DNA from: an uncultured Gemmatimonadales bacterium
Lineage (GTDB): Bacteria > Gemmatimonadota > Gemmatimonadetes > Gemmatimonadales > GWC2-71-9
Reading direction: 5' to 3'
Assembly: GCA_963748815.1 (NCBI GenBank)
Contig: CAVVKJ010000007.1
Location: 1 to 64,000 of the forward strand
Length of the DNA: 64,000 bases
This document shows, in pieces, positions 34,813 to 46,073 of this stretch. A program made the translations under genes and the position numbers. The notes below the pieces were generated by a model that did no database searches, was not told where the DNA came from, and saw only the letters and a program-made list of their open reading frames with translations. Within the stretch, counting starts at the first letter, position 1, and every line of letters starts with the position of its first letter.

Positions 34813-35265
34813 TCAGGGCAGCGCGGCGACCTTGCGAAGCTCCCGCAGCACCGCGCGCTGGGCGGCGGCGTCCCGCACCGCCACAAAGATAGTGTCGTCT
34901 CCTGCGATCGTGCCGACCACCCCGGCCCATGACAGCCGATCGAGCGCGGCACCGACGGGGCTTGCCTCGCCCGGCGGCGTTCGGAGGACGACCAGCGCGT
35001 CGCCCGCGGTCTCCACGCCGATAAGGGCCTCGGCGATCCGCCGCAGGTCGGGATCGTCCACCGGGCGCGCCACCACCACCGGGCGACGATAGACGCCGTT
35101 CACCTTGACGAGCCGCAGCGCCGCGATATCCCGGCTCACCGACGACTGGGTGACGGACCACCCCTCCGCCGCCAGCGCCGCCGCCACCTCCTCCTGCGTG
35201 CGCAGCGCCTGGGTGCTGATCAACTCCAGAATTTTCAGGTGACGCTTCCGCCGGTCGGTGCTCAC
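34813..35265 (-). CDS. argR: Arginine repressor
   Basis: R...ILELI, TQEE, VTQSSVSRDI and GTIAGDDTIF motifs. GTGA overlap with argH. Confidence 0.93.
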   Translation of the reverse strand: MSTDRRKRHLKILELISTQALRTQEEVAAALAAEGWSVTQSSVSRDIAALRLVKVNGVYRRPVVVARPVDDPDLRRIAEALIGVETAGDALVVLRTPPGEASPVGAALDRLSWAGVVGTIAGDDTIFVAVRDAAAQRAVLRELRKVAALP

Positions 35266-36661
35266 AACTTCCTCTCCGGGCCCCGTCCGGCCAGCCGCCG
35301 GAGCGCCCTCTCGAAGCGTTGCCGCTCGCGCCCGCTCCACTGGTGCCGGGCCCGGACGCGGGCGCGCGCCGCGGGGAGCCCGAGGTTGCCCAGCCCTCCG
35401 GTCGACCGGCGCCGGGCGAGCAGCTCCCGCCGGGTCGGCGCCGGGAAATGCGCACCTGCCTTCAGCTCGACCGCCACGTCGCGATAGGCGCGCCGGAAGG
35501 GCACCCCCTCCTCCACCCGTCGCATCACCTCGTCGGTGGCCAGCGCGTCACCCGCGATGGCCGCGGTACACCGGTCCGCATTCACGCCGAGCGAGGGAAT
35601 GGCCACCGCCAGCATCGACAGCATCTCGCGCGTCCGCTGCAGCCCGCGAAAGAGGGGCTCCTTCAGCAGCTGGAAATCGCGATGGTACCCGCCGGTGAGG
35701 CGGGATGCCACGTGCAGCAGCGCGGCATGATCGCCGTGCACGGTGGCGGCGCGGGCACGCGTCAGTTCGAAGAGGTCGGGATTGCGTTTGTGCGGCATGA
35801 TGCTGGAGCCGGTGGCGAGCCGCGCCGGGAGCTCGGAGGTAGCCGTACTCCTCCGCGCTGAAGAGGATGACGTCGGAGCTGAAGCGGGCCAGGTCGTGCC
35901 CCAGCTCTCCGCACCACGCGAGCACGGCGGCTTCGAGCTTTCCCCGTCCGAGCTGCACCGCGGCCACATTGTGTTCCACGGACCCGAACCCCAGCGCCCG
36001 CGCCGTCGCCTCCCGATCGAGCGGCAACGGGACACCATACCCTGCGGCGCTTCCGAGCGGCGATCGGTCCACCCGCGCCCACAAGCGCGGGAAGCGACTC
36101 CAGGGTATCGAGCAACCCCTCGGCGTATGCCGCGGCCCAGAGCCCGATGGACGACGGCATCGCCTTCCGGGAATGGGTGTACCCGGGCCAGAGCTGGTCG
36201 CGATGGCGCGCGGCAAAGGCAAGGAGCGCCTGCGCCACGTCCTCGGCGGTCTCGTGCAACTCCAGCAGCTGGTTCTTCAGGTAGAGCCGGAGGTCGCACG
36301 CCACCTGGTCGTTGCGCGACCGACCGGTATGCAGCTGCTCGCCGACGACTCCGTGCCGCCGGGTGATCCAGTCCTCCACGGCGCTGTGCGCGTCCTCATG
36401 GACGAGATCGATCACGAGCACTCCTGCCTCGACCTCCCGGAGCGCGCGGCGGAGCGCTGTCCGGAGCTTCCCGTGCGCGTTCGCCGACAGGAGCTTCGAT
36501 GCGCGCAGTCCTTCCACGTGTCCCAGGCTCCCGTACACGTCCCAGGGAAGGAGGCGCATGTCCCAGAGCCGGTCCTCGCCAACCGTGTAGTCGAGCATCA
36601 GGCGATCAGGGTCGTCGGAGGGCGACCAGAGCGTTCGCGGCGACGTGCGACGAGGGGTCAT
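35262..36661 (-). CDS. argH: Argininosuccinate lyase; two apparent +1 frameshifts near 36084 and 35836
   Basis: HTGRSRNDQV and PGYTH in the first frame, SPLGSAAGYG in the second, GSSIMPHKRNPD and GYHRD in the third. Confidence 0.88.
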
Positions 36662-37737
36662 TGCAGATACTCCCCTGCAAGATCGGCATAGAACCGGCGG
36701 GCGGCGGATACCTGCCCCAAATCTACGCATTCGTCGGGGGTGTGGGAGCGCTGGCTCGTGCCCGGCCCGCACTTCACCGCATCGAGGTGCCGCAGGAAGA
36801 CCCAGTCGCTGCAGGTGGGGCTGCCGTAGCGCGAGGCCGCGGGACGAAGCGATGCGCAGGCCGCGAGCAAGCGGGACCCAGGCGGCGTTTCGCAGGGGAC
36901 CAGCCGATCGGAGGTAACAATCACCTCGCCGGAGAGGGCGCTCCGAAGCCCCTCGGCGAGCTCCTCGTGCGTCCACGCCGGTGTGCTGCGGATGTCGAGG
37001 ACCGCCTTGGCCGAGGGGGGCGTCACGTTCCGGCTCACGCCGGCGCTGACCATCGTCGCCGTCACGGTCGGGTGCCCGAGGATCGGGTGAGGACGACCGG
37101 TGAAGAGGGTCTCGAGCTGGAGAAGGTCGCGCGCCAGCGCCGTCAGGGCGTTGGTGAATGGACCATCCTCATTGACCCGACCGGCGTGGCGCTGGTCGCC
37201 GTGGGCGATCAGCTCGGCCATCATCAGGCCGCGCTGGGCGACGGCGACATCGAGATCGGTGGGTTCGCCGACAACGGCGGCGTCGATCCTCCCGGCGCGG
37301 GCCACCAGGTCGGGCATCGAGGTGTTGCGGGTCTCTTCGCCGAGGCCAAAGAGGAGCAGCAGGTCGCCTCGCGCCGGCCCTCCGCCTTCGGCAACGTCGC
37401 GCGCGGCCGTCAGCATCGCCGCGACGGAGGCCTTCGCGTCGCCGGAACCGCGTCCGAAGAGCTGGCCGCCTTCGATGACGGGGGTGAACGGGTCGCGCGT
37501 CCACCCTGACCCGGGCGGCACGACGTCGAGGTGCGACACCAGCGCAAGCGTCGGGCCGGCCCCCTTCCCGCTGAGGCGCACGGACACGCCCGCCGTATCC
37601 AGGACGACGGGGAGGCCCCAGCGACGGGCGGTTTCCTCGACGAGGCTCGCCACCGCCGCCTCCTCGCCGCTCACGGAGGGAACGGCGACGAGTTCCCGGA
37701 GGAGCTCGACTTCAGTCGGCCAGGTCGACGCCGAGAT
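36658..37737 (-). CDS. argE: M20 family acyl-ornithine/acyl-citrulline deacylase; start uncertain
   Basis: LLRELVAVPSVSG, SHLDVV, GRGSGDAK, GEE, VGEPT and SHTPDE motifs. Located between argB and argH. Confidence 0.85.
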   Translation of the reverse strand: MSASTWPTEVELLRELVAVPSVSGEEAAVASLVEETARRWGLPVVLDTAGVSVRLSGKGAGPTLALVSHLDVVPPGSGWTRDPFTPVIEGGQLFGRGSGDAKASVAAMLTAARDVAEGGGPARGDLLLLFGLGEETRNTSMPDLVARAGRIDAAVVGEPTDLDVAVAQRGLMMAELIAHGDQRHAGRVNEDGPFTNALTALARDLLQLETLFTGRPHPILGHPTVTATMVSAGVSRNVTPPSAKAVLDIRSTPAWTHEELAEGLRSALSGEVIVTSDRLVPCETPPGSRLLAACASLRPAASRYGSPTCSDWVFLRHLDAVKCGPGTSQRSHTPDECVDLGQVSAARRFYADLAGEYLQ

Positions 37738-38647
37738 AGGTCGCCTTCTCCTTCCGGCCGACGATCATGGTGCCGCATCCGGCCCCGGTGAACACCTCGA
37801 GCAGGAGCGCGTCCGCCACGCGCCCGTCGATGATGTGGGTCCGCTCGACGCCGCCGGTGGCCGCGCGGATGCACGCCTCCACCTTGGGGCGCATCCCGCC
37901 GGCCACTGCCCCGCTGGCGAGGAGTCCGGCCAGGTCGTCGGGGTCGGCGAAGGCGATGAGGCTTGACGGGTCTTCGCGGTCGCGGAGGACGCCGGGCGCC
38001 CCGGTCAGGAAGATCAGCTTCTGCGCCCGGAGCGCGACCGCGAGCGATTCCGCGACGGTATCGGCGTTGACGTTGAAGACGTTGCCGTCACCGTCCCCCG
38101 CGAGGCTCGCCACCACCGGCACGAACCGCGCGTCGAGCAGTGTGCGGAGCACGCGCGGGTCCACGCGGTCGAGGTCTCCGACGTGCCCGTAGTCCACCGT
38201 TTGGGACTTGCCATCGTCATCCACCACCTTGACGGGGGGCCGGCGGTGGGCGGTGATGAGGTCGGCGTCCACACCGCTCAAGCCGACCCCCTGCGCCTCG
38301 TGGGCGCGAAGCGAGGCGAGGAGGTCGACGTTGAGCTGTCCCGCATAGACCATTTTCGCCACGGCCAGCGCATCGTCATCGGTGACCCGCCGGCCCGCCA
38401 CGATCCGTGGCTCCGCACCCATCCGACGGCTGAGGGCGGTGGCCTGGGGACCGCCGCCGTGCACCACCACCAGCTGGATGCCGAGGCTGGACAGGAGCGA
38501 CACCTGCGCGGCGATGCCGTCCACGGCGCGCGGATCCGCGAGGACCTCCCCGCCCAGCTTGACCACGAAGACCTGGTCGCGATAGGCGCGCACGTACCGC
38601 AGCGCGCCCTTGAGGCCCGTGATGCCCTTCGTCGTGTCAATGCTCAC
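37712..38647 (-). CDS. argB: N-acylglutamate kinase
   Basis: VVKLGG, VVHGGG, GRRVTD, NVNAD and GGMRPK motifs. No fused NAT/ArgA domain. Confidence 0.93.
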   Translation of the reverse strand: MSIDTTKGITGLKGALRYVRAYRDQVFVVKLGGEVLADPRAVDGIAAQVSLLSSLGIQLVVVHGGGPQATALSRRMGAEPRIVAGRRVTDDDALAVAKMVYAGQLNVDLLASLRAHEAQGVGLSGVDADLITAHRRPPVKVVDDDGKSQTVDYGHVGDLDRVDPRVLRTLLDARFVPVVASLAGDGDGNVFNVNADTVAESLAVALRAQKLIFLTGAPGVLRDREDPSSLIAFADPDDLAGLLASGAVAGGMRPKVEACIRAATGGVERTHIIDGRVADALLLEVFTGAGCGTMIVGRKEKATYLGVDLAD

Positions 38648-39663
38648 TGAGTGCTCCCGATCATCGTGAGGAGGAGCGCCCGCTGCACATGCAGCCGGTT
38701 CTCCGCCTCGTCCACCACTGCCGAGTGCGGCCCGTCGAGCACCGCGTCGTCGACCTCGACGTTTCGACGTACCGGCAGGCAGTGCATCGCGATGCCCTTG
38801 CCGTGGCGCGTCGTGGCCATCTGCGCCGCCGTGAGCCGCCAACCACGGTGCACGTCGAACAACGCCCGCTGCGCCTCGGGCTGCCCATACATCGAGACCG
38901 GTCCCCACGACTTGGCGTAGACCGCGTCGGCGCCGGCGATGGCGGCGTCCTGGTCATGGGCCAATGACACCTTGCCTCCGCCAGCCTCGGCGCCCAACTC
39001 TCCGATGCGCCGCACGTCCTCGGGATCGAGGTCGCAGCCTTCGGGCGCGGCGATCGTGATGTCCATGCCCAGCCGCGCCGCCGCCAGGGCGGCGCTCACC
39101 GGCACCGCCGTCGGGAGCGCCTTCGGGTGCCAGGCCCAGGTCAGCACGAACTTCTTGCCGCGGGTCTCCCCGAGTTTTTCCCGGAGGGTGAACGCGTCCG
39201 CCAGTTCCTGGCAGGGATGGCGGCGCGAGGACTCGAGATTGATGACCGGCTTCTCACAGTGGCGGGCGAACTGCCGCAGGACGGTGTCCTGCCGCGCGGT
39301 GGCCCATGCACCGCCCCGGGGAAAGGAGCGGACGGCCAGCGCGTCGGCGTAGCGGCCGAGGACGCGGGCCGCTTCAGTGACATGCTCCACGGTTTCGCGG
39401 TCCATCACCACACCCTCTTCGGTCTCGAGCGCCCAGCTGCCCTTCCCAGGTTCAAGGACCACCGCGTGACCGCCATGGAGAAACATCCCGGCTTCAAAGC
39501 TGGTCCGCGTGCGCAGGCTCGGATCGAGGAAGATCATCGCCAGCACCTTCCGCTCCAGCCCACCGGAAACCTCGCCCCGCTTGATCCGGGCGGCGAGGGC
39601 GAGCAGCGCCTCGATCTCGGCAAACGACCAGTCTTCCACAGCGAGGAAGTCACGCTTGGTCAC
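38644..39663 (-). CDS. argF: N-acyl-ornithine transcarbamylase (ArgF' type; predicted succinyl-preferring)
   Basis: SLRT, HPCQELAD, TWAWHPKALPTAV (AOTCase/SOTCase loop) and HCLPVRR motifs. Confidence 0.9.
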   Translation of the reverse strand: MTKRDFLAVEDWSFAEIEALLALAARIKRGEVSGGLERKVLAMIFLDPSLRTRTSFEAGMFLHGGHAVVLEPGKGSWALETEEGVVMDRETVEHVTEAARVLGRYADALAVRSFPRGGAWATARQDTVLRQFARHCEKPVINLESSRRHPCQELADAFTLREKLGETRGKKFVLTWAWHPKALPTAVPVSAALAAARLGMDITIAAPEGCDLDPEDVRRIGELGAEAGGGKVSLAHDQDAAIAGADAVYAKSWGPVSMYGQPEAQRALFDVHRGWRLTAAQMATTRHGKGIAMHCLPVRRNVEVDDAVLDGPHSAVVDEAENRLHVQRALLLTMIGSTQ

Positions 39664-40808
39664 GTCAGCACCTCGCGGAGGCCGGCCAGGAGCACGTCGG
39701 CCTCCTGGACCGAGAGGGTGAGCGGCGGCATGATCCGGAGGACCTGGGGGTCGGAGGAGGTCCCCGTCAGGATGCGACGGGCAAAGAGGGCCTGCTGGAG
39801 TTCCTTCGCCGGCCGGCCGAAGTCGAGGCCAAGCAGCAAGCCCCGCCCCCACACCTTTCGCGCGCCGAGCGCGCGGGCTCCCACGGCGATGTGGGCGCCG
39901 ACCCGCATGGCATTCCCGGCCAGGTCCTCGTCGGCGATGACGGCCAGCGTGGCCAGGGCGGCTGCGCAGGCGAGCGGCCCTCCGCCGAACGTGCTGCCCA
40001 GATCGCCAACGCCGACCCCCTCCGCCAGCATTGAACCGGCGACGAGTGCCCCGATCGGATAGCCCGAGCCGAGTCCCTTGGCCATGGTCAGGCCGTCGGG
40101 CACGACACCGTAGCCTTCCGCCGCCGTGAATGTGCCGCTCCGCGCGACGCCGCACTGCACCTCGTCGAAGAGGAGTGCGATGCCCCGTTCCGTGCAGATC
40201 CGGCGCGCTGCCACGAGGAACTCGACGCTGCACTCCCGGGCTCCGGCCATGCCCTGCACCGGTTCCACGAGGAGCGCCGCCATCGAGTCATCGAGGACCG
40301 CATCGAGGGAGGCCACGTCGTTGTAGGTGACCCGGGAGGAGAGTGCCATCCCGGCCCGCAGCGCGCCGGCCTCGTAGGAGGCGCCGTCGCAGCACGCGAG
40401 GGTCGCCACCGTGCGTCCGTGCCAACCGCCGGTCACCGAGGCGACGCCCGACCGTCCCGTCGCCTTGCGCGCCAGCTGAAGTGCGTTCTCGTTGGCCTCC
40501 GCGCCCGAATTGCAGAAAAACACCCGGCCGAGGGTGCCTGGGCACCGGGCGGCGAGCTCCGACGCCAACGCGAGACGCAGGGGATGGGGCACGGCCGTGG
40601 AATAGAATACCAGGCGCTTCGCCTGGGCGGTGATCGCCTCGACCACGCGCGGGTGGCTGTGCCCGGTGGAGGCCACGGCGTGGCCACCGTAGGCGTCGAG
40701 CCATTCCGCGCCGTCCTCGTCCACCAGCCAGGCGCCGCGGCCAGAGACCGGCCGGATCGGCATCTGTGCGTACACGGGCAGGAGGGCCTCCGCTCCCGCG
40801 CTCAGCAT
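39660..40808 (-). CDS. argD: Acylornithine aminotransferase (class III PLP)
   Basis: CNSGAEANE, HGRT, EPVQG, FDEVQCG, AKGLG and STFGG motifs. Confidence 0.92.
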   Translation of the reverse strand: MLSAGAEALLPVYAQMPIRPVSGRGAWLVDEDGAEWLDAYGGHAVASTGHSHPRVVEAITAQAKRLVFYSTAVPHPLRLALASELAARCPGTLGRVFFCNSGAEANENALQLARKATGRSGVASVTGGWHGRTVATLACCDGASYEAGALRAGMALSSRVTYNDVASLDAVLDDSMAALLVEPVQGMAGARECSVEFLVAARRICTERGIALLFDEVQCGVARSGTFTAAEGYGVVPDGLTMAKGLGSGYPIGALVAGSMLAEGVGVGDLGSTFGGGPLACAAALATLAVIADEDLAGNAMRVGAHIAVGARALGARKVWGRGLLLGLDFGRPAKELQQALFARRILTGTSSDPQVLRIMPPLTLSVQEADVLLAGLREVLT

Positions 40809-41830
40809 GGAAAAGGCCCCGCCAGCCGAAGTCCGGCGGTCTCATCGAGCCCGAGGGCGAGGTTCATCCCCTGGACCGCCTGCCCTCCGGCACCCTTGAT
40901 GAGATTGTCGAGCGCCACCATCACCTGTACCTCGCCGGTCGAGGCGTCGCCGACCGCGTGCATCAGCGCGAGGTTGGTGCCGACCGCGTGCGTGAGCTGC
41001 GGCGGCTCGTCGGTGAGGCGCACGAACGGGCGCCCCACGTAGGCGGCCGCGCAGAGCTCACCCACCCGCGCCGCCGCGTCGGGCGCGACGGTGGCGTGGA
41101 GGGTCAGGTGGATGCCCCGCACAAATGGGCCGGAGTGGGCCATCAACCGAGCCGTCGCGGCCGCCGCTCCCGTCCAACCCCGCCACGCCTGCAACACCTC
41201 GGCGTCGTGTCGATGACGCAGCGCCGAATAGGCGAAGAGGTTGTTCGCACGGGCGGGATGGTGGGTGGTGGGCTTCGGGTGGACACCGGCGCCGCTCGAT
41301 CCGGTCACGCCGAACAGCGCCGGAACGCCGACGACGCCGGCTGACCGGAGCGGGTAGAGCGCCAGCTGCGCCGCCGTGGCGAAACAACCGGGCGCCGCGA
41401 GCGCCTCGACGCCGCGGAGTTCGGCGCCGCGCACGTCGGCCAGGCCGTAGGCGAACCGCGTTACCAGGTCGGGCGCCGGATGAGCCCCGTAGTACTGCTC
41501 ATAGAGGCGGAGATCGCGCACCCGGAAGTCGGCCGCGAGGTCAATCACCAGCCCGGGCCCGGCGTCGAAGACGTCTCCCGCCACCTTCGACGACTCGCCG
41601 TGTTCCAGCGAGAGAAACACGACGTCCTGGTCCCGGGCGGCCTCGCCGGCCGTCAGCCCCGCAAATCGCGCCTCGGTGAGTGCGGCGAGCGCCGGGTGCA
41701 CCTCGGCGATCGGTCGGCCGGCCTGGCTCCGGCTGGTCGCGATGACCTCGGTGATGTCCGGGTGCTGGAGCAGGAGCCGGAGCAATTCGCCACCGACATA
41801 CCCGGCGGCCCCGACCACCGCGACCTTCAC
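40802..41830 (-). CDS. argC: N-acyl-gamma-glutamyl-phosphate reductase
   Basis: GAAGYVG, PGCFAT, GSSGAG, HRH and DNLIKGAGGQA motifs. Confidence 0.93.
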   Translation of the reverse strand: MKVAVVGAAGYVGGELLRLLLQHPDITEVIATSRSQAGRPIAEVHPALAALTEARFAGLTAGEAARDQDVVFLSLEHGESSKVAGDVFDAGPGLVIDLAADFRVRDLRLYEQYYGAHPAPDLVTRFAYGLADVRGAELRGVEALAAPGCFATAAQLALYPLRSAGVVGVPALFGVTGSSGAGVHPKPTTHHPARANNLFAYSALRHRHDAEVLQAWRGWTGAAAATARLMAHSGPFVRGIHLTLHATVAPDAAARVGELCAAAYVGRPFVRLTDEPPQLTHAVGTNLALMHAVGDASTGEVQVMVALDNLIKGAGGQAVQGMNLALGLDETAGLRLAGPFPC

Positions 41831-42885
41831 GTCGGCTCCAACGCCGCGACCACGACGGCGAGCAGTCCATCGGCGTCGCGCAACGCATTGTGCGCCGGAA
41901 TCCCGAGCGAGGCGCTGATGTAGTCGCGGCCGACCTGGTTGTCGGTGGCCGGACCGGTGAGCACGGTGATGGGCAGGCCGTACGTCCCCCGCATGAGCTG
42001 GTCCGCACCCCAGCAGCCCACGGGGTCAGGAGCGGCCATGACCCAGGCGCGTCCGGCGCCCGAGAGTTCGGGATCCCGGAGGATGTCCTGCACGCCGTAC
42101 TCTCCGAGGATGCCATCGCCGAGTTCCGCCACGATCACGTCGGGGCGGACGGTCTGCTGCAGGCGATTGAAGAGCCCCTTGGCCACCGCGACGGTCATCC
42201 CGGCGTGGGTGCTCGCGGCGCCGGCGTCGTTGAACGTCATCGCCGCCACGGCACCTGCGTCCTGCATGGCGAGCGTGTCGCGCATGAGGCTGACGCCGGT
42301 CAGCTTCGTCGCCGCGACCCGCAGGCCGCGGCGCGCGAGGCCGCGGACCAACTCGGTGGCCGCCACGGTCTTGCCGGCATTCATGCAGGTCCCCGCCACG
42401 TAGATGACCGGAGCCTCAAGCTCCAGCGATTCGCTGGTGGGGATGGCCCCGTCCCGGATGTGCGCGGGACGGCCGACCCGGTCTCCCAGGGCGGGAAAAG
42501 CGAGCACGGCGCCGAGGACCTCCGCCGCGAACGGCGGACCGATGTCGGGATTGGCCGAGGTGCAGCGGCCGAGCACGCCGCCGAGATTGAGCACGTCGAT
42601 CGTGTCACCCACGGCGATGTGACTCGGCACCTCGCCGGCGTATCCGCGGAGGGCGCGCCGGCTTCCGAGCGTGCCGGCGAGGACATCCCCCTTCCGGAGC
42701 GAGACCAGCCTGCCTGCCAGGTCTTCCACCGTGTTGTAGGAGGACTTGTCGGTGAGCAGTCGCACGGCCAGCACGTAGCCTTCGGCGGCCACGATCTCCT
42801 GGCCGACGATTACCTCGGTCGAAAGGTGGGCGTTGCGGGTGGAGGAGCTGATGCGGTCCAGGCGAATCCGGGTCGTGGTCACCAT
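41827..42885 (-). CDS. DUF1611/BioD-superfamily P-loop protein inside the arg operon; candidate N-acylglutamate synthase
   Basis: Walker A GTCMNAGKT, KLTG and Walker B-like DVIVAELGDG. TGATG overlap with argG and GTGA overlap with argC. Confidence 0.8.
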   Translation of the reverse strand: MVTTTRIRLDRISSSTRNAHLSTEVIVGQEIVAAEGYVLAVRLLTDKSSYNTVEDLAGRLVSLRKGDVLAGTLGSRRALRGYAGEVPSHIAVGDTIDVLNLGGVLGRCTSANPDIGPPFAAEVLGAVLAFPALGDRVGRPAHIRDGAIPTSESLELEAPVIYVAGTCMNAGKTVAATELVRGLARRGLRVAATKLTGVSLMRDTLAMQDAGAVAAMTFNDAGAASTHAGMTVAVAKGLFNRLQQTVRPDVIVAELGDGILGEYGVQDILRDPELSGAGRAWVMAAPDPVGCWGADQLMRGTYGLPITVLTGPATDNQVGRDYISASLGIPAHNALRDADGLLAVVVAALEPT

Positions 42886-44081
42886 CAGTCCGCCCCTCCG
42901 GCGCGCGCGGCGAGCAGCGCGGGAATTGCCGCCACACGGGCAAAGGCGCGCGCCTCGTCGCCGGTCCAGAGGCGATTCTCCTCGCCGTAGGTGGCGACAC
43001 GCGGGTCCATCATCGAATGCGGGCTCCGCGCGCCGACGACCTGGAACCGGCCGGGCGCGAGACGGACCCGCGTCTCGCCCGCCACGCGGTGCTGCGAATG
43101 GGTCAAGAGCGCCTCGATGTCGCGGAGGGCGGGATCGAAGTACTGCCCTTCGTGCAGTCGGTCGCCATAGAAGGTCGAGAGCTGGTCCTTCCAGAACGCC
43201 TGCCACTTGGTCAGGACGAGCTTCTCCAGCTCGCGGTGCGCGGCGATGAGCACGAGTGCGGCTCCCGCCTCGAAGCCGATCCGGCCCTTGATGCCGAGGG
43301 CGGTCTCGCCGACATGGATGCCGCGGCCAAACCCGTAGGCGGCCGCGAGGTCGTTGAGCGACTGGACCAGGTCGACCCCGGCGAGCTGATTGCCGTCGAG
43401 TGCGACCGGGAGCCCGCCGTCCCATGCAATGACGATGTCGCGGGGTGCCGGGGCGTCGGCGGGCGGCTCGAGCAGTTCTGCCGGCGGGCCCGCCCAGGTG
43501 TCGTGGGTCCAGCCCCCTCCCCAGGTGGTGCCCCACAGCCCGGCATTGATCGAGTAGGCCCCGGCCTTCGCCGGCACCGGCAGGTGGCGACTTTCGAGGT
43601 ACGCAATCGCCTGGGTGCGGGAGAGACCCTCGTCGCGGATGGGGGTGAGGATGGCGAGGTCGGCCGCGAGGACGCGCAGAGTCACGTCGAACCGGACCTG
43701 GTCGTTCCCGGCCCCGGTGGAGCCGTGCGCGACGGCAACCGCCCCGATGCTGCGGGCCACGTCAAGGACGGACATCGCCTGCTGGGTCCGCTCGGCGGCC
43801 ACGCTGAGCGGATAGACGCCGCCCCGCAGCACGTTGCCCTGGATCAGGTACCGGACGAACCGATCGAAGACCAGGGCGCGGGCATCCACCTCATGGTGGG
43901 CGACCGACCCCACCACCTCCGCCTGGCGCCGAATGGCGGCCCGCTCCTCCGGGGAGGCGCCGCCGGTGTTGACATAGACCGTATGGACCGCCCAGCCCTG
44001 CTCGGCGAGGCGCGGGACGCAGTAGGACGTGTCGAGTCCGCCCGAGAAGGCCAGGGCGACGACGCCGGGTGAAGTTTGCAT
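42885..44081 (-). CDS. argG: Argininosuccinate synthase
   Basis: LAFSGGLDTS, HGSTGAGNDQVRF, YSIN.GLWG and GIKGR..FE motifs. Confidence 0.95.
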   Translation of the reverse strand: MQTSPGVVALAFSGGLDTSYCVPRLAEQGWAVHTVYVNTGGASPEERAAIRRQAEVVGSVAHHEVDARALVFDRFVRYLIQGNVLRGGVYPLSVAAERTQQAMSVLDVARSIGAVAVAHGSTGAGNDQVRFDVTLRVLAADLAILTPIRDEGLSRTQAIAYLESRHLPVPAKAGAYSINAGLWGTTWGGGWTHDTWAGPPAELLEPPADAPAPRDIVIAWDGGLPVALDGNQLAGVDLVQSLNDLAAAYGFGRGIHVGETALGIKGRIGFEAGAALVLIAAHRELEKLVLTKWQAFWKDQLSTFYGDRLHEGQYFDPALRDIEALLTHSQHRVAGETRVRLAPGRFQVVGARSPHSMMDPRVATYGEENRLWTGDEARAFARVAAIPALLAARAGGAD

Positions 44082-44099
44082 AATGGATAAATATGCAAT
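44082..44099 (-). promoter_or_regulatory. ARG box abutting the argG start codon
   Basis: ATTGCATATTTATCCATT matches the 18-bp ArgR consensus WNTGMATWWWWATKCANW with one mismatch; AT-rich patch in high-GC DNA. Confidence 0.8.
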
Positions 44100-44126
44100 A
44101 CGGAAATGGCCGTGCGCAAGGGGGGG

Positions 44127-45959
44127 TCAGTCGGCGCGCCCTGCCCGTTCCTCCGGAAACCGCAGACGATAGGAGAGGGTCGCGAGTTCCTGGTCGACCG
44201 CTGCCTCGTATTCCGGACCCTCCACCGCCTGGCGGAGTTTCGCGGAAACCGGGATGACCATCGGCGCCGGCTCCCACTCGACCACGGCCCCGGTGGCGGC
44301 ATCGACCACCCTCCCCTCCTCCACCGCCCGGGTTGCCTCCACCAACCGGAGACTCGAGAGCGCCCGGCGCATTGCCTCGAGGCGCGCCTGATGCGCCGGA
44401 TCGACGAAGCGGCTGCCGAAGGTGGCCACGAAGTACCCGGCCGGCATGTACAACAGGCCGTCGAACCCGAGCTCACCGCAGAGCACCACGAGCCAGGCCA
44501 TGACGTCGCGGAGCAGGCCGAGCCCGGGATGCTTCTGACCGGGCATCGAGTGCTTGCCCGACGCGAAGTGGCGTCGCGGATTCTGGAGCAGGACCCAGTC
44601 GAGAAAGAGCATCTCCATCCCCGGCAGGCTGGTGCGATCGCGGCGGAATCGGATCTCCATGAGGAGTTCCGTCCGCGCCGCGTCGCCGAAGAGGCGAACG
44701 GTGTCGGAATCGGCCAGATGGAAGTCCAGCTCCAGCGTCGGCTGGGCGAACCCGAGGGCGCGCACCTGCGCCAGCACTCCCAGGCGCTCGAGCAGCAGCT
44801 CCACCCCCTGGGCGGTGTATCGGCCGAGGAGCCGGCGGGGCGCCATCCCCCCACCCGGATCGAACGCCGCCAGGTCCTCAGCGGTGAGGGCCCAATCGGC
44901 GGCCGGCGGCAGCCGTCGGGCGCCGTCGTGGAGCAACCGATGGAGTTCCTGCGCGCGCCTGATCAGCATGTCGGTATTGGTCGGGGGCTCGACCGTCCGT
45001 CCCGCCGCGAGCCACCCGAGGAAGCGTGCTGTATAGCGCCACGCGTTGCCCCCATACCCGCCGCCGAGCGTAATGACGAGCGGGATCTCGGCGCCCTCCG
45101 GACGCACCTGCCCGATCACGAACTGGTCCCGGGCCAGCATCCCGTCGGCGGTGATGTTCCAGTCGCCGACCATGTCGTCGGAGGCGGGATCCACCCCCGC
45201 GACGTAGAACACCAGCCCTGGGCGCACCTGCCGGATGACGGGCGGAAGCGCCTCCTTGAGCGTCTTGAGATAGGTCGCGTCGTTCACGGCCGTGCCGAGC
45301 GCGATCACGGTGGCGGCAGCGGCCTCGCGCGGCGCCCAGTCCTGGTTGTGGATCGTGAACGTGTGCACGGTGGGATCTTCCTCGAAGAGCACTCGCGTCC
45401 CGTTGCCGTCGTGGATGTCGAGGTCGACGATCAGGATCGGCGCCTCGAACCCTTGCGCCCGCACGCGGGCCACGGCAATGGCAAGGTCGTTGAGGGCACA
45501 GAAGCCCATCCCCCGGTTCGACGCGGCATGATGAAAACCGCCGCCGAGGTTGACGGCGACCCGTCCTGTCCGGAGCGCGACGGCCGCGGCGAGGACCGTG
45601 CCCCCCGCCGCAAGTCGCTGGAACTCGACGAGTCCCTGGGCCTCGGTGTCGGTGAGCTGCGCGCCGACGATCTGTTCGATCACCTCGGTACGCTCCAGCG
45701 ACTCGAGGTACTTGTCGGTATGCACCCGACGGAGGTTCTTCATCGACGCCGACTGCGGCCGGAGGAGCTCCCGCTGGCGGATGAGCCCTTCGTCGGTGAG
45801 GAAGGCGAGCACCATCTCGGCGCGCAGTGGATCCATCGGGATGGAGCCGAGCTGGACGACGTAGCGGGGATCGTAGATGAGCACCAGCCCCGAGGAGCGG
45901 AGACTGCGACGAATCGCGCCCCACACCCACCGGCCCATCCGCCGTCCTACCGACATCAT
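44127..45959 (-). CDS. Histone-deacetylase (HDAC/AcuC) family Zn deacylase with ~250-aa C-terminal domain
   Basis: GGGFHHA, GFC..ND, DLDIHDGNGT, GVDP and GGGY motifs. Start approximate. Confidence 0.85.
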   Translation of the reverse strand: MMSVGRRMGRWVWGAIRRSLRSSGLVLIYDPRYVVQLGSIPMDPLRAEMVLAFLTDEGLIRQRELLRPQSASMKNLRRVHTDKYLESLERTEVIEQIVGAQLTDTEAQGLVEFQRLAAGGTVLAAAVALRTGRVAVNLGGGFHHAASNRGMGFCALNDLAIAVARVRAQGFEAPILIVDLDIHDGNGTRVLFEEDPTVHTFTIHNQDWAPREAAAATVIALGTAVNDATYLKTLKEALPPVIRQVRPGLVFYVAGVDPASDDMVGDWNITADGMLARDQFVIGQVRPEGAEIPLVITLGGGYGGNAWRYTARFLGWLAAGRTVEPPTNTDMLIRRAQELHRLLHDGARRLPPAADWALTAEDLAAFDPGGGMAPRRLLGRYTAQGVELLLERLGVLAQVRALGFAQPTLELDFHLADSDTVRLFGDAARTELLMEIRFRRDRTSLPGMEMLFLDWVLLQNPRRHFASGKHSMPGQKHPGLGLLRDVMAWLVVLCGELGFDGLLYMPAGYFVATFGSRFVDPAHQARLEAMRRALSSLRLVEATRAVEEGRVVDAATGAVVEWEPAPMVIPVSAKLRQAVEGPEYEAAVDQELATLSYRLRFPEERAGRAD

Positions 45960-46073
45960 TCCCGGCCCACTCACGCGATCGGCCTCCCTCTGTGCCCAGG
46001 ACGACGGTTGCCCGGCAACGGTGCGGCCCGTCGACCCCGCCGCCACCACCGGAGTATACTATTGGGACTGCCC

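Follow-up and report, generated by a model that had tools for sequence, protein, structure and literature searches.

The arginine operon in the analysed stretch of DNA, a window of 64,000 nucleotides from a Gemmatimonadales genome, contains an additional gene, here named gene X, whose product, judged from sequence comparisons, very probably forms N-succinyl-glutamate as first-step enzyme of arginine synthesis. An earlier note had read the gene as a non-GNAT enzyme filling the missing first step. This role was supported by the position in the operon, the exclusion of ArgJ and ArgA, the control by an ARG box and a valine at position 92 of ArgF'. If the role is true, the first step of arginine synthesis would no longer be missing in many bacteria. 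It has already been predicted independently in print, and the gene itself is no discovery. New are the placement of X outside the DUF1611/DgcN family, an N-terminal domain without a solved match, the invariance of residues known from dethiobiotin synthetase (DTBS) and a sister clade outside arg operons. Gene, operon, exclusion pattern, fold and residue conservation are direct observations. That X is both the first-step enzyme and an ATP-dependent succinate:glutamate ligase is, on the sequence comparisons, nearly an even call, on the lower side of it. The ligase reaction, if true, would be a new chemistry for the first step of arginine synthesis.

The arginine operon and its control

The neighbours of X were identified with NCBIfam models and confirmed the proposed ArgR-linked operon with argG, C, D, F', B, E, H and R; the gene order is argG-X-argC-argD-argF'-argB-argE-argH-argR (Table 1). 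The claim that ArgB has no NAT domain held in the Pfam search. The reading frame of X has no internal stops and is translated into 352 amino acids, with a coding-type GC content by codon position of 0.71/0.51/0.88. Coordinates and translation bore out an extra gene that overlaps both arg neighbours, with one base shared with argG and four with argC, and that carries the motifs GTCMNAGKT (residues 165-173), KLTG (194-197) and VAELGDG (252-258).

Table 1 Features of the arginine operon in the window
Feature	Position	Strand	Remarks
ARG-box-like operator	44084..44097	-	just upstream of argG start codon; seen in sequence
argG, argininosuccinate synthase	42885..44081	-	PRK04527 317 bits, TIGR00032 267 bits, both under cut-off
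gene X, predicted alternative ArgA	41827..42885	-	two-domain protein; all-beta N-domain 1-150, SIMIBI P-loop C-domain 155-352
argC, N-acyl-glutamyl-phosphate reductase	40802..41830	-	TIGR01850 312.7 bits, over cut-off
argD, acylornithine aminotransferase	39660..40808	-	PRK03244 311.6 bits, under cut-off
argF', N-acylornithine carbamoyltransferase	38644..39663	-	PRK04523 428.8 bits (cut-off 288); Val at 92 (succinyl type)
argB, acylglutamate kinase	37712..38647	-	TIGR00761 214.8 bits; Pfam AA_kinase only, no fused NAT
argE-like M20 deacylase, acylcitrulline hydrolase by position	36658..37674	-	TIGR01910 140.9 bits, under cut-off
argH, argininosuccinate lyase	35262..36661	-	spread over three frames, two out-of-frame points in this assembly
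argR, arginine repressor	34813..35265	-	TIGR01529 113.5 bits, under cut-off

The frame changes in argH were traced to one additional base each near 36084 and 35836 in comparison with five of five relatives with an open frame. They are likely an assembly error, because argH is intact in the relatives, with both halves in one frame in 54 of the 56 loci that cover them. The start of the argE-like gene may lie slightly further upstream. With two mismatches allowed, an ARG-box consensus pattern occurred before argG in 66 of 68 related loci, compared to 62 of 11426 background windows. On the minus strand, positions 44079-44119 contain a conserved TTGCGC-like -35 element and an AT-rich -10/ARG box that ends only ~8 bases before the argG ATG; a Shine-Dalgarno sequence was not evident at the argG start. 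The arrangement suggests a leaderless argG transcript that is repressed at its start. Directly upstream of argG (44127-46049, minus strand) is the gene of a 640-aa histone-deacetylase-family protein whose C-terminal half is without annotation; among the 80 loci, only 11 have it at this place, all of them from the closest relatives.

Previous prediction of the gene function

The earlier note had allowed for an existing comparative-genomics proposal, and there is one for the same family, GapMind 2024-2026. GapMind 2026 (PLoS Genet, PMC13759103) predicted ACG33_RS14135 of Steroidobacter as an alternative N-succinylglutamate synthase. In the accessible part of this article, operon context, argA exclusion and the argument from ArgF' residue 92 are the same as for X, 109 genera with this first-step gap are counted, and S. 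denitrificans is reported to be without ArgE as well. Donor and mechanism are addressed there only by the likeness to DgcN, and the comparison is drawn with Pseudomonas ArgA, not with ArgJ. Its Table 1 states 'no' as evidence for the role of ACG33_RS14135, and among the plasmids of supplementary file 4 are pALF12, which carries this gene, and an E. coli argA plasmid; an outcome for the two plasmids was not found in the accessible text of PMC13759103. An unreported failure is possible.

The insert of pALF12, translated by eye, has 357 codons and GTCMEAGKT, KATGVSLRRD, ELGDG and GPATDN from end to end. Compared by eye, it resembles the homologue P0130, whose identity to X is 47%. The plasmid label A0A127FTC3 was taken as a typo for A0A127FCT3. 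Because the insert has the family motifs throughout and resembles P0130, X is placed by sequence in the A0A127FCT3 family predicted by GapMind. A protein named from Steroidobacter was not among the results of the homologue searches or the cluster look-ups (20 proteins). A literature collection without most subscription journals yielded no paper on an ATP-dependent acylglutamate ligase, only unrelated papers for DUF1611 and none for DgcN.

Domain structure and active site

The label DUF1611 given to X in the earlier note was appropriate for the fold of the P-loop domain and not for family membership. The Pfam model DUF1611 (PF07755) scored 23.3 bits, against a gathering cut-off of 25, and covered profile positions 7-62, the Walker A region only; 13 of 72 members of the X family were matched at E<=0.001. 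The DgcN model NF041892 had no match to X in the NCBIfam search. X is, on these profile scores, best regarded as not a member of DUF1611/DgcN. The source genome possesses a DUF1611/DgcN-type gene proper at L099:1459-2520 (G000 C10), with 247 bits. For the BioD model TIGR00347 the score of X was 16.1 bits against a cut-off of 83.3, GNAT, ArgA or ArgJ models of Pfam and NCBIfam did not match it, and a sequence search of the PDB with X alone gave nothing meaningful (best E 0.77).

The AlphaFold2 model of X, computed with a 72-sequence alignment (pLDDT 96.5), combines an all-beta N-domain with a P-loop C-domain, and its best matches were P-loop proteins and not the GNAT or ArgJ fold. The C-domain matched the DUF1611 proteins 2G0T (Z 17.5) and 2OBN (Z 16.6) and DgcN 7XRJ (Z 15.5), with an rmsd of ~3 Å over 180-185 residues; in Foldseek, 2obn had an E of 3.2e-6. 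Among the ligases, dethiobiotin synthetase 1A82 reached Z 15.9, CTP synthase 15.3 and FTHFS 13.1. ApbC had Z 15.5 and belongs with FtsY, HypB and MeaB to other SIMIBI neighbours at Z 14-15.5. The all-beta N-domain (pLDDT 95.8) had, on its own, a best Z of 3.2 against solved folds, no Foldseek match at E<=0.001 and no DUF1611 chain among the 34 matches at Z>=2; a domain without match is no proof of a new fold.

A profile alignment of X and BioD (probability 89.5 over 140 columns, with a BioD profile of three proteins only) paired K172/K15, T173/T16, K194/K37, D203/D51 and E254/E111. In DTBS these residues have roles towards Mg and the acyl-phosphate. None of the 351 full-length homologues, a set of close relatives, deviated from X at the five residues; a more diverse alignment of 72 rows had K172, K194 and E254 invariant and T173 and D203 conserved in at least 90%. 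In the accessible description of the M. tuberculosis DTBS, the matching residues belong to the active site (PMC9932657). Two of the five are absent from DgcN-type proteins, whose Walker A reads GK-M/K/R and whose second loop is ATGQTG. ATGQTG and EGQG were invariant in six of six DgcN-type rows and are present in 7XRJ, 2OBN and 2G0T, in contrast to KLTG and ELGDG in X. The profile alignment of X with the six DgcN-type proteins extended over 53 columns only (probability 50.6).

An ATP-dependent ligase is favoured over an acyl-CoA transferase because the five DTBS residues are invariant in X and two of them are missing in DgcN-type proteins. The idea of ATP dependence put forward in the earlier note gains from this conservation; the ATP route itself, like catalysis and substrates, we infer. 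The same P-loop residues would also be compatible with a plain NTPase. X shares with DgcN/DUF1611 the SIMIBI P-loop C-domain, a similar length, the GT-x-C/M-x-x-GK loop and, if the prediction for X is right, glutamate N-acylation; it differs in the retention of GKT and K194 and probably in the N-domain. BioD and the SIMIBI C-N ligases CTP synthase, formyl-THF synthetase and CobQ are like X in fold, and BioD has the five aligned active-site residues in common with it. X differs from BioD by the extra N-terminal beta-domain, with a structural identity of 16%, and by its arginine instead of biotin context.

Tentatively, we read X from its sequence as a succinate:L-glutamate ligase that depends on ATP and not on CoA, belongs to the dethiobiotin-synthetase lineage and has an unmatched N-terminal beta-domain. 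The P-loop domain would bind Mg-ATP with K172, T173, D203 and E254, and the carboxylate of succinate would be phosphorylated. K194 would stabilise the acyl-phosphate, which the alpha-amine of glutamate would attack under release of ADP and Pi. The beta-domain with the invariant residues Y50, E54 and R76 probably supplies the substrate pocket. The resulting pathway would be linear and succinylated: glutamate would be converted by X to N-succinyl-glutamate and via ArgB, ArgC and ArgD to N-succinylornithine, ArgF' would form N-succinylcitrulline, and ArgE, ArgG and ArgH would follow, with control by ArgR. An assay with acyl-CoA only or a complementation of E. coli with its acetyl pathway could miss the activity if X needs succinate and ATP as well as succinyl-specific downstream enzymes.

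A doubtful, but still serious, alternative is a DgcN-like first-step enzyme that transfers the acyl group from succinyl-CoA to glutamate and holds the CoA phosphates with its P-loop. Several of the top structural matches of X are DUF1611/DgcN chains, and a transferase would be supported just as well by the genomic evidence for the role. DgcN is named an N-acetyltransferase, and a transferase is the reading implied in the accessible text of GapMind. Bacteroides has a known succinyl ArgA, BT3761, described in the accessible part of PMC8121099 as a GNAT-family acyltransferase. This enzyme, canonical ArgA and ArgJ have the same proposed step as X and unrelated folds. Against a transferase, the match to DUF1611/DgcN is essentially confined to the C-domain, the all-beta N-domain finding no close counterpart, and X keeps the Walker A threonine and the second lysine, both absent in DgcN-type proteins.

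First-step enzymes in the source genome and exclusion among Gemmatimonadota

Neither argA nor argJ, whose presence elsewhere in the genome the earlier note wanted checked, was found in the source genome, which is 86% complete. ArgJ had no match, and the ArgA model matched only the kinase domain of argB, with a score below cut-off. The DUF619/NAT model (PF04768) had no match in the source genome, and the same search was silent in every control genome. Twelve GNAT reading frames were present, five of them without any NCBIfam match; none of the twelve matched an NAGS model at E<=1e-5. The LysW/LysX carrier route was rejected as a candidate: LysX was not found over cut-off in the source genome, and a simple pattern detected no LysW-like reading frame in seven loci.

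X adjoined argG (78 loci) and/or argC (79 loci) in all 80 fetched loci. Close homologues were named Gemmatimonadales; homologues of 43-53% identity were named from Myxococcales, Phycisphaerae, Holophaga, Eisenbacteria and Delta- and Gammaproteobacteria, and Verrucomicrobiota are also among the taxa naming X homologues. A survey of 301 genomes of the phylum Gemmatimonadota with the X-family profile obtained matches in 136: 84 genomes with at least 300 bits (arg type), 10 with 187-247 bits (sister clade, counted apart) and 42 with weak Walker-A matches below 40 bits, which were dropped. The arg type is thus defined by score, and the genomic context was checked for the source genome and 10 others. 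The counts include the unpublished genomes G053 (X, ArgF'), G153 and G178 (both ArgJ).

ArgJ was detected in 97 of the 301 genomes, among them 3 of the 10 sister-clade genomes and none of the 84 with arg-type X. About 27 genomes with both would be expected if the two were independent, which related genomes are not. With canonical ArgA (model match over E 1e-58) in none of the 301 genomes, the mutual exclusion that the earlier note had proposed to look for was apparent. The arg operon and the absence of canonical ArgA, which characterise the GapMind family, were found in 80 of 80 loci and 301 of 301 genomes, respectively. Neither arg-type X nor ArgJ was present in 120 of the 301 genomes. ArgF' occurred in 70 genomes, of which 69 had X, and 15 of the 84 genomes with arg-type X were without an ArgF' match.

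Five inspected loci revealed a second operon type in the order argR-X-argC-argD-argB(-argG-argH), with no match to ArgF' and without ArgJ (L140-L144, in the genomes G197, G137, G057, G123 and G039). X operons without ArgF' are an addition to the earlier prediction. The X proteins of L140-L142 cluster in the tree with the Steroidobacter-like P0130. Five X genomes without ArgF', four of them single-contig, had only canonical OTC and ATCase, and their M20 homologues were distant from the argE of the window (32-36%).

A stray GNAT could perform the first step, with X as an accessory or regulatory NTPase that would activate or chaperone another Arg enzyme. The fold neighbours FtsY, HypB, ApbC and MeaB and the dozen GNAT reading frames in an incomplete genome would agree with this. 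It is nevertheless improbable, as it leaves unexplained both the exclusion of X and ArgJ within one family and the location of X between argR and argC, directly behind argR, in the second operon type. Still less probable is that X acts in another step, e.g., in supply or recycling of the acyl group or as a replacement of the deacylase. The lack of ArgE that GapMind reports for S. denitrificans and the distant M20 homologues in the five genomes without ArgF' speak for such a step; genes for all remaining steps are already in the operon, however, and neither a hydrolase motif nor a hydrolase fold was seen in X.

Acyl group of the pathway

The ArgF' of the window has a valine at residue 92, as has its best PDB match 3L06; in other entries the residue is A, P, S or E. 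Residue 92 was V in 68 of the 68 loci that cover the site, out of 80 loci. According to the accessible text of GapMind, which cites Shi 2007, A, P, S or V at this position switches the specificity to succinylornithine (PMC13759103). The succinyl specificity regarded as possible in the earlier note was in this way backed by the window and its relatives. In 15 of the 84 X genomes an ArgF' match, and with it this diagnostic residue, is missing. That X instead forms N-acetyl-glutamate, or both acyl forms, is the least probable of the alternatives: the five genomes with only canonical OTC and ATCase, as in acetyl pathways, and the acetyltransferase activity of the nearest characterised fold relative are outweighed by the valine in ArgF' of the window and all readable close loci.

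Sister clades and distant homologues

A sister clade of X is located outside arg operons, either near M20 deacylases and an enolase of the OSBS/N-succinylamino-acid-racemase type (TIGR01928 347-350 bits) or near PGA_cap genes. By analogy, this context may be seen as indirect support for an amino-acid N-acyl chemistry, while a weak GNAT in one of the clusters could do the acylation there instead. Should the ligase reading of X be true, a wider family of amino-acid N-acyl ligases, as yet uncharacterised, would have its best-anchored member in X.

The clusters in L131, L133, L137, L138 and L139 look catabolic, with genes for M20 peptidase, flavin reductase, Fe-S/CCG oxidoreductase and aldehyde dehydrogenase, and an enolase-family racemase lies beside the sister-clade homologue in L133, L137 and L139. 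The other sister group was beside PGA_cap (CapA) genes in L130 and L132, with an ABC transporter in L130. Similar proteins on plasmids were encoded next to ABC/HlyD exporters, one of these proteins being annotated as 'dethiobiotin synthase' (L151). A full-length homologue with 27% identity to X is encoded on the Priestia megaterium plasmid NZ_CP085446.1 (L150:7974-9035), in a likely phosphonate cluster of PEP mutase-family, TPP-dependent, two ATP-grasp, OTCase, M20 and LLM genes that is flanked by IS6 elements. The homologue P0224 has tryptophan at several conserved glycine positions of the motif table, a pattern as expected if TGA was read as Trp in the sequence of an organism using TGA for Gly.
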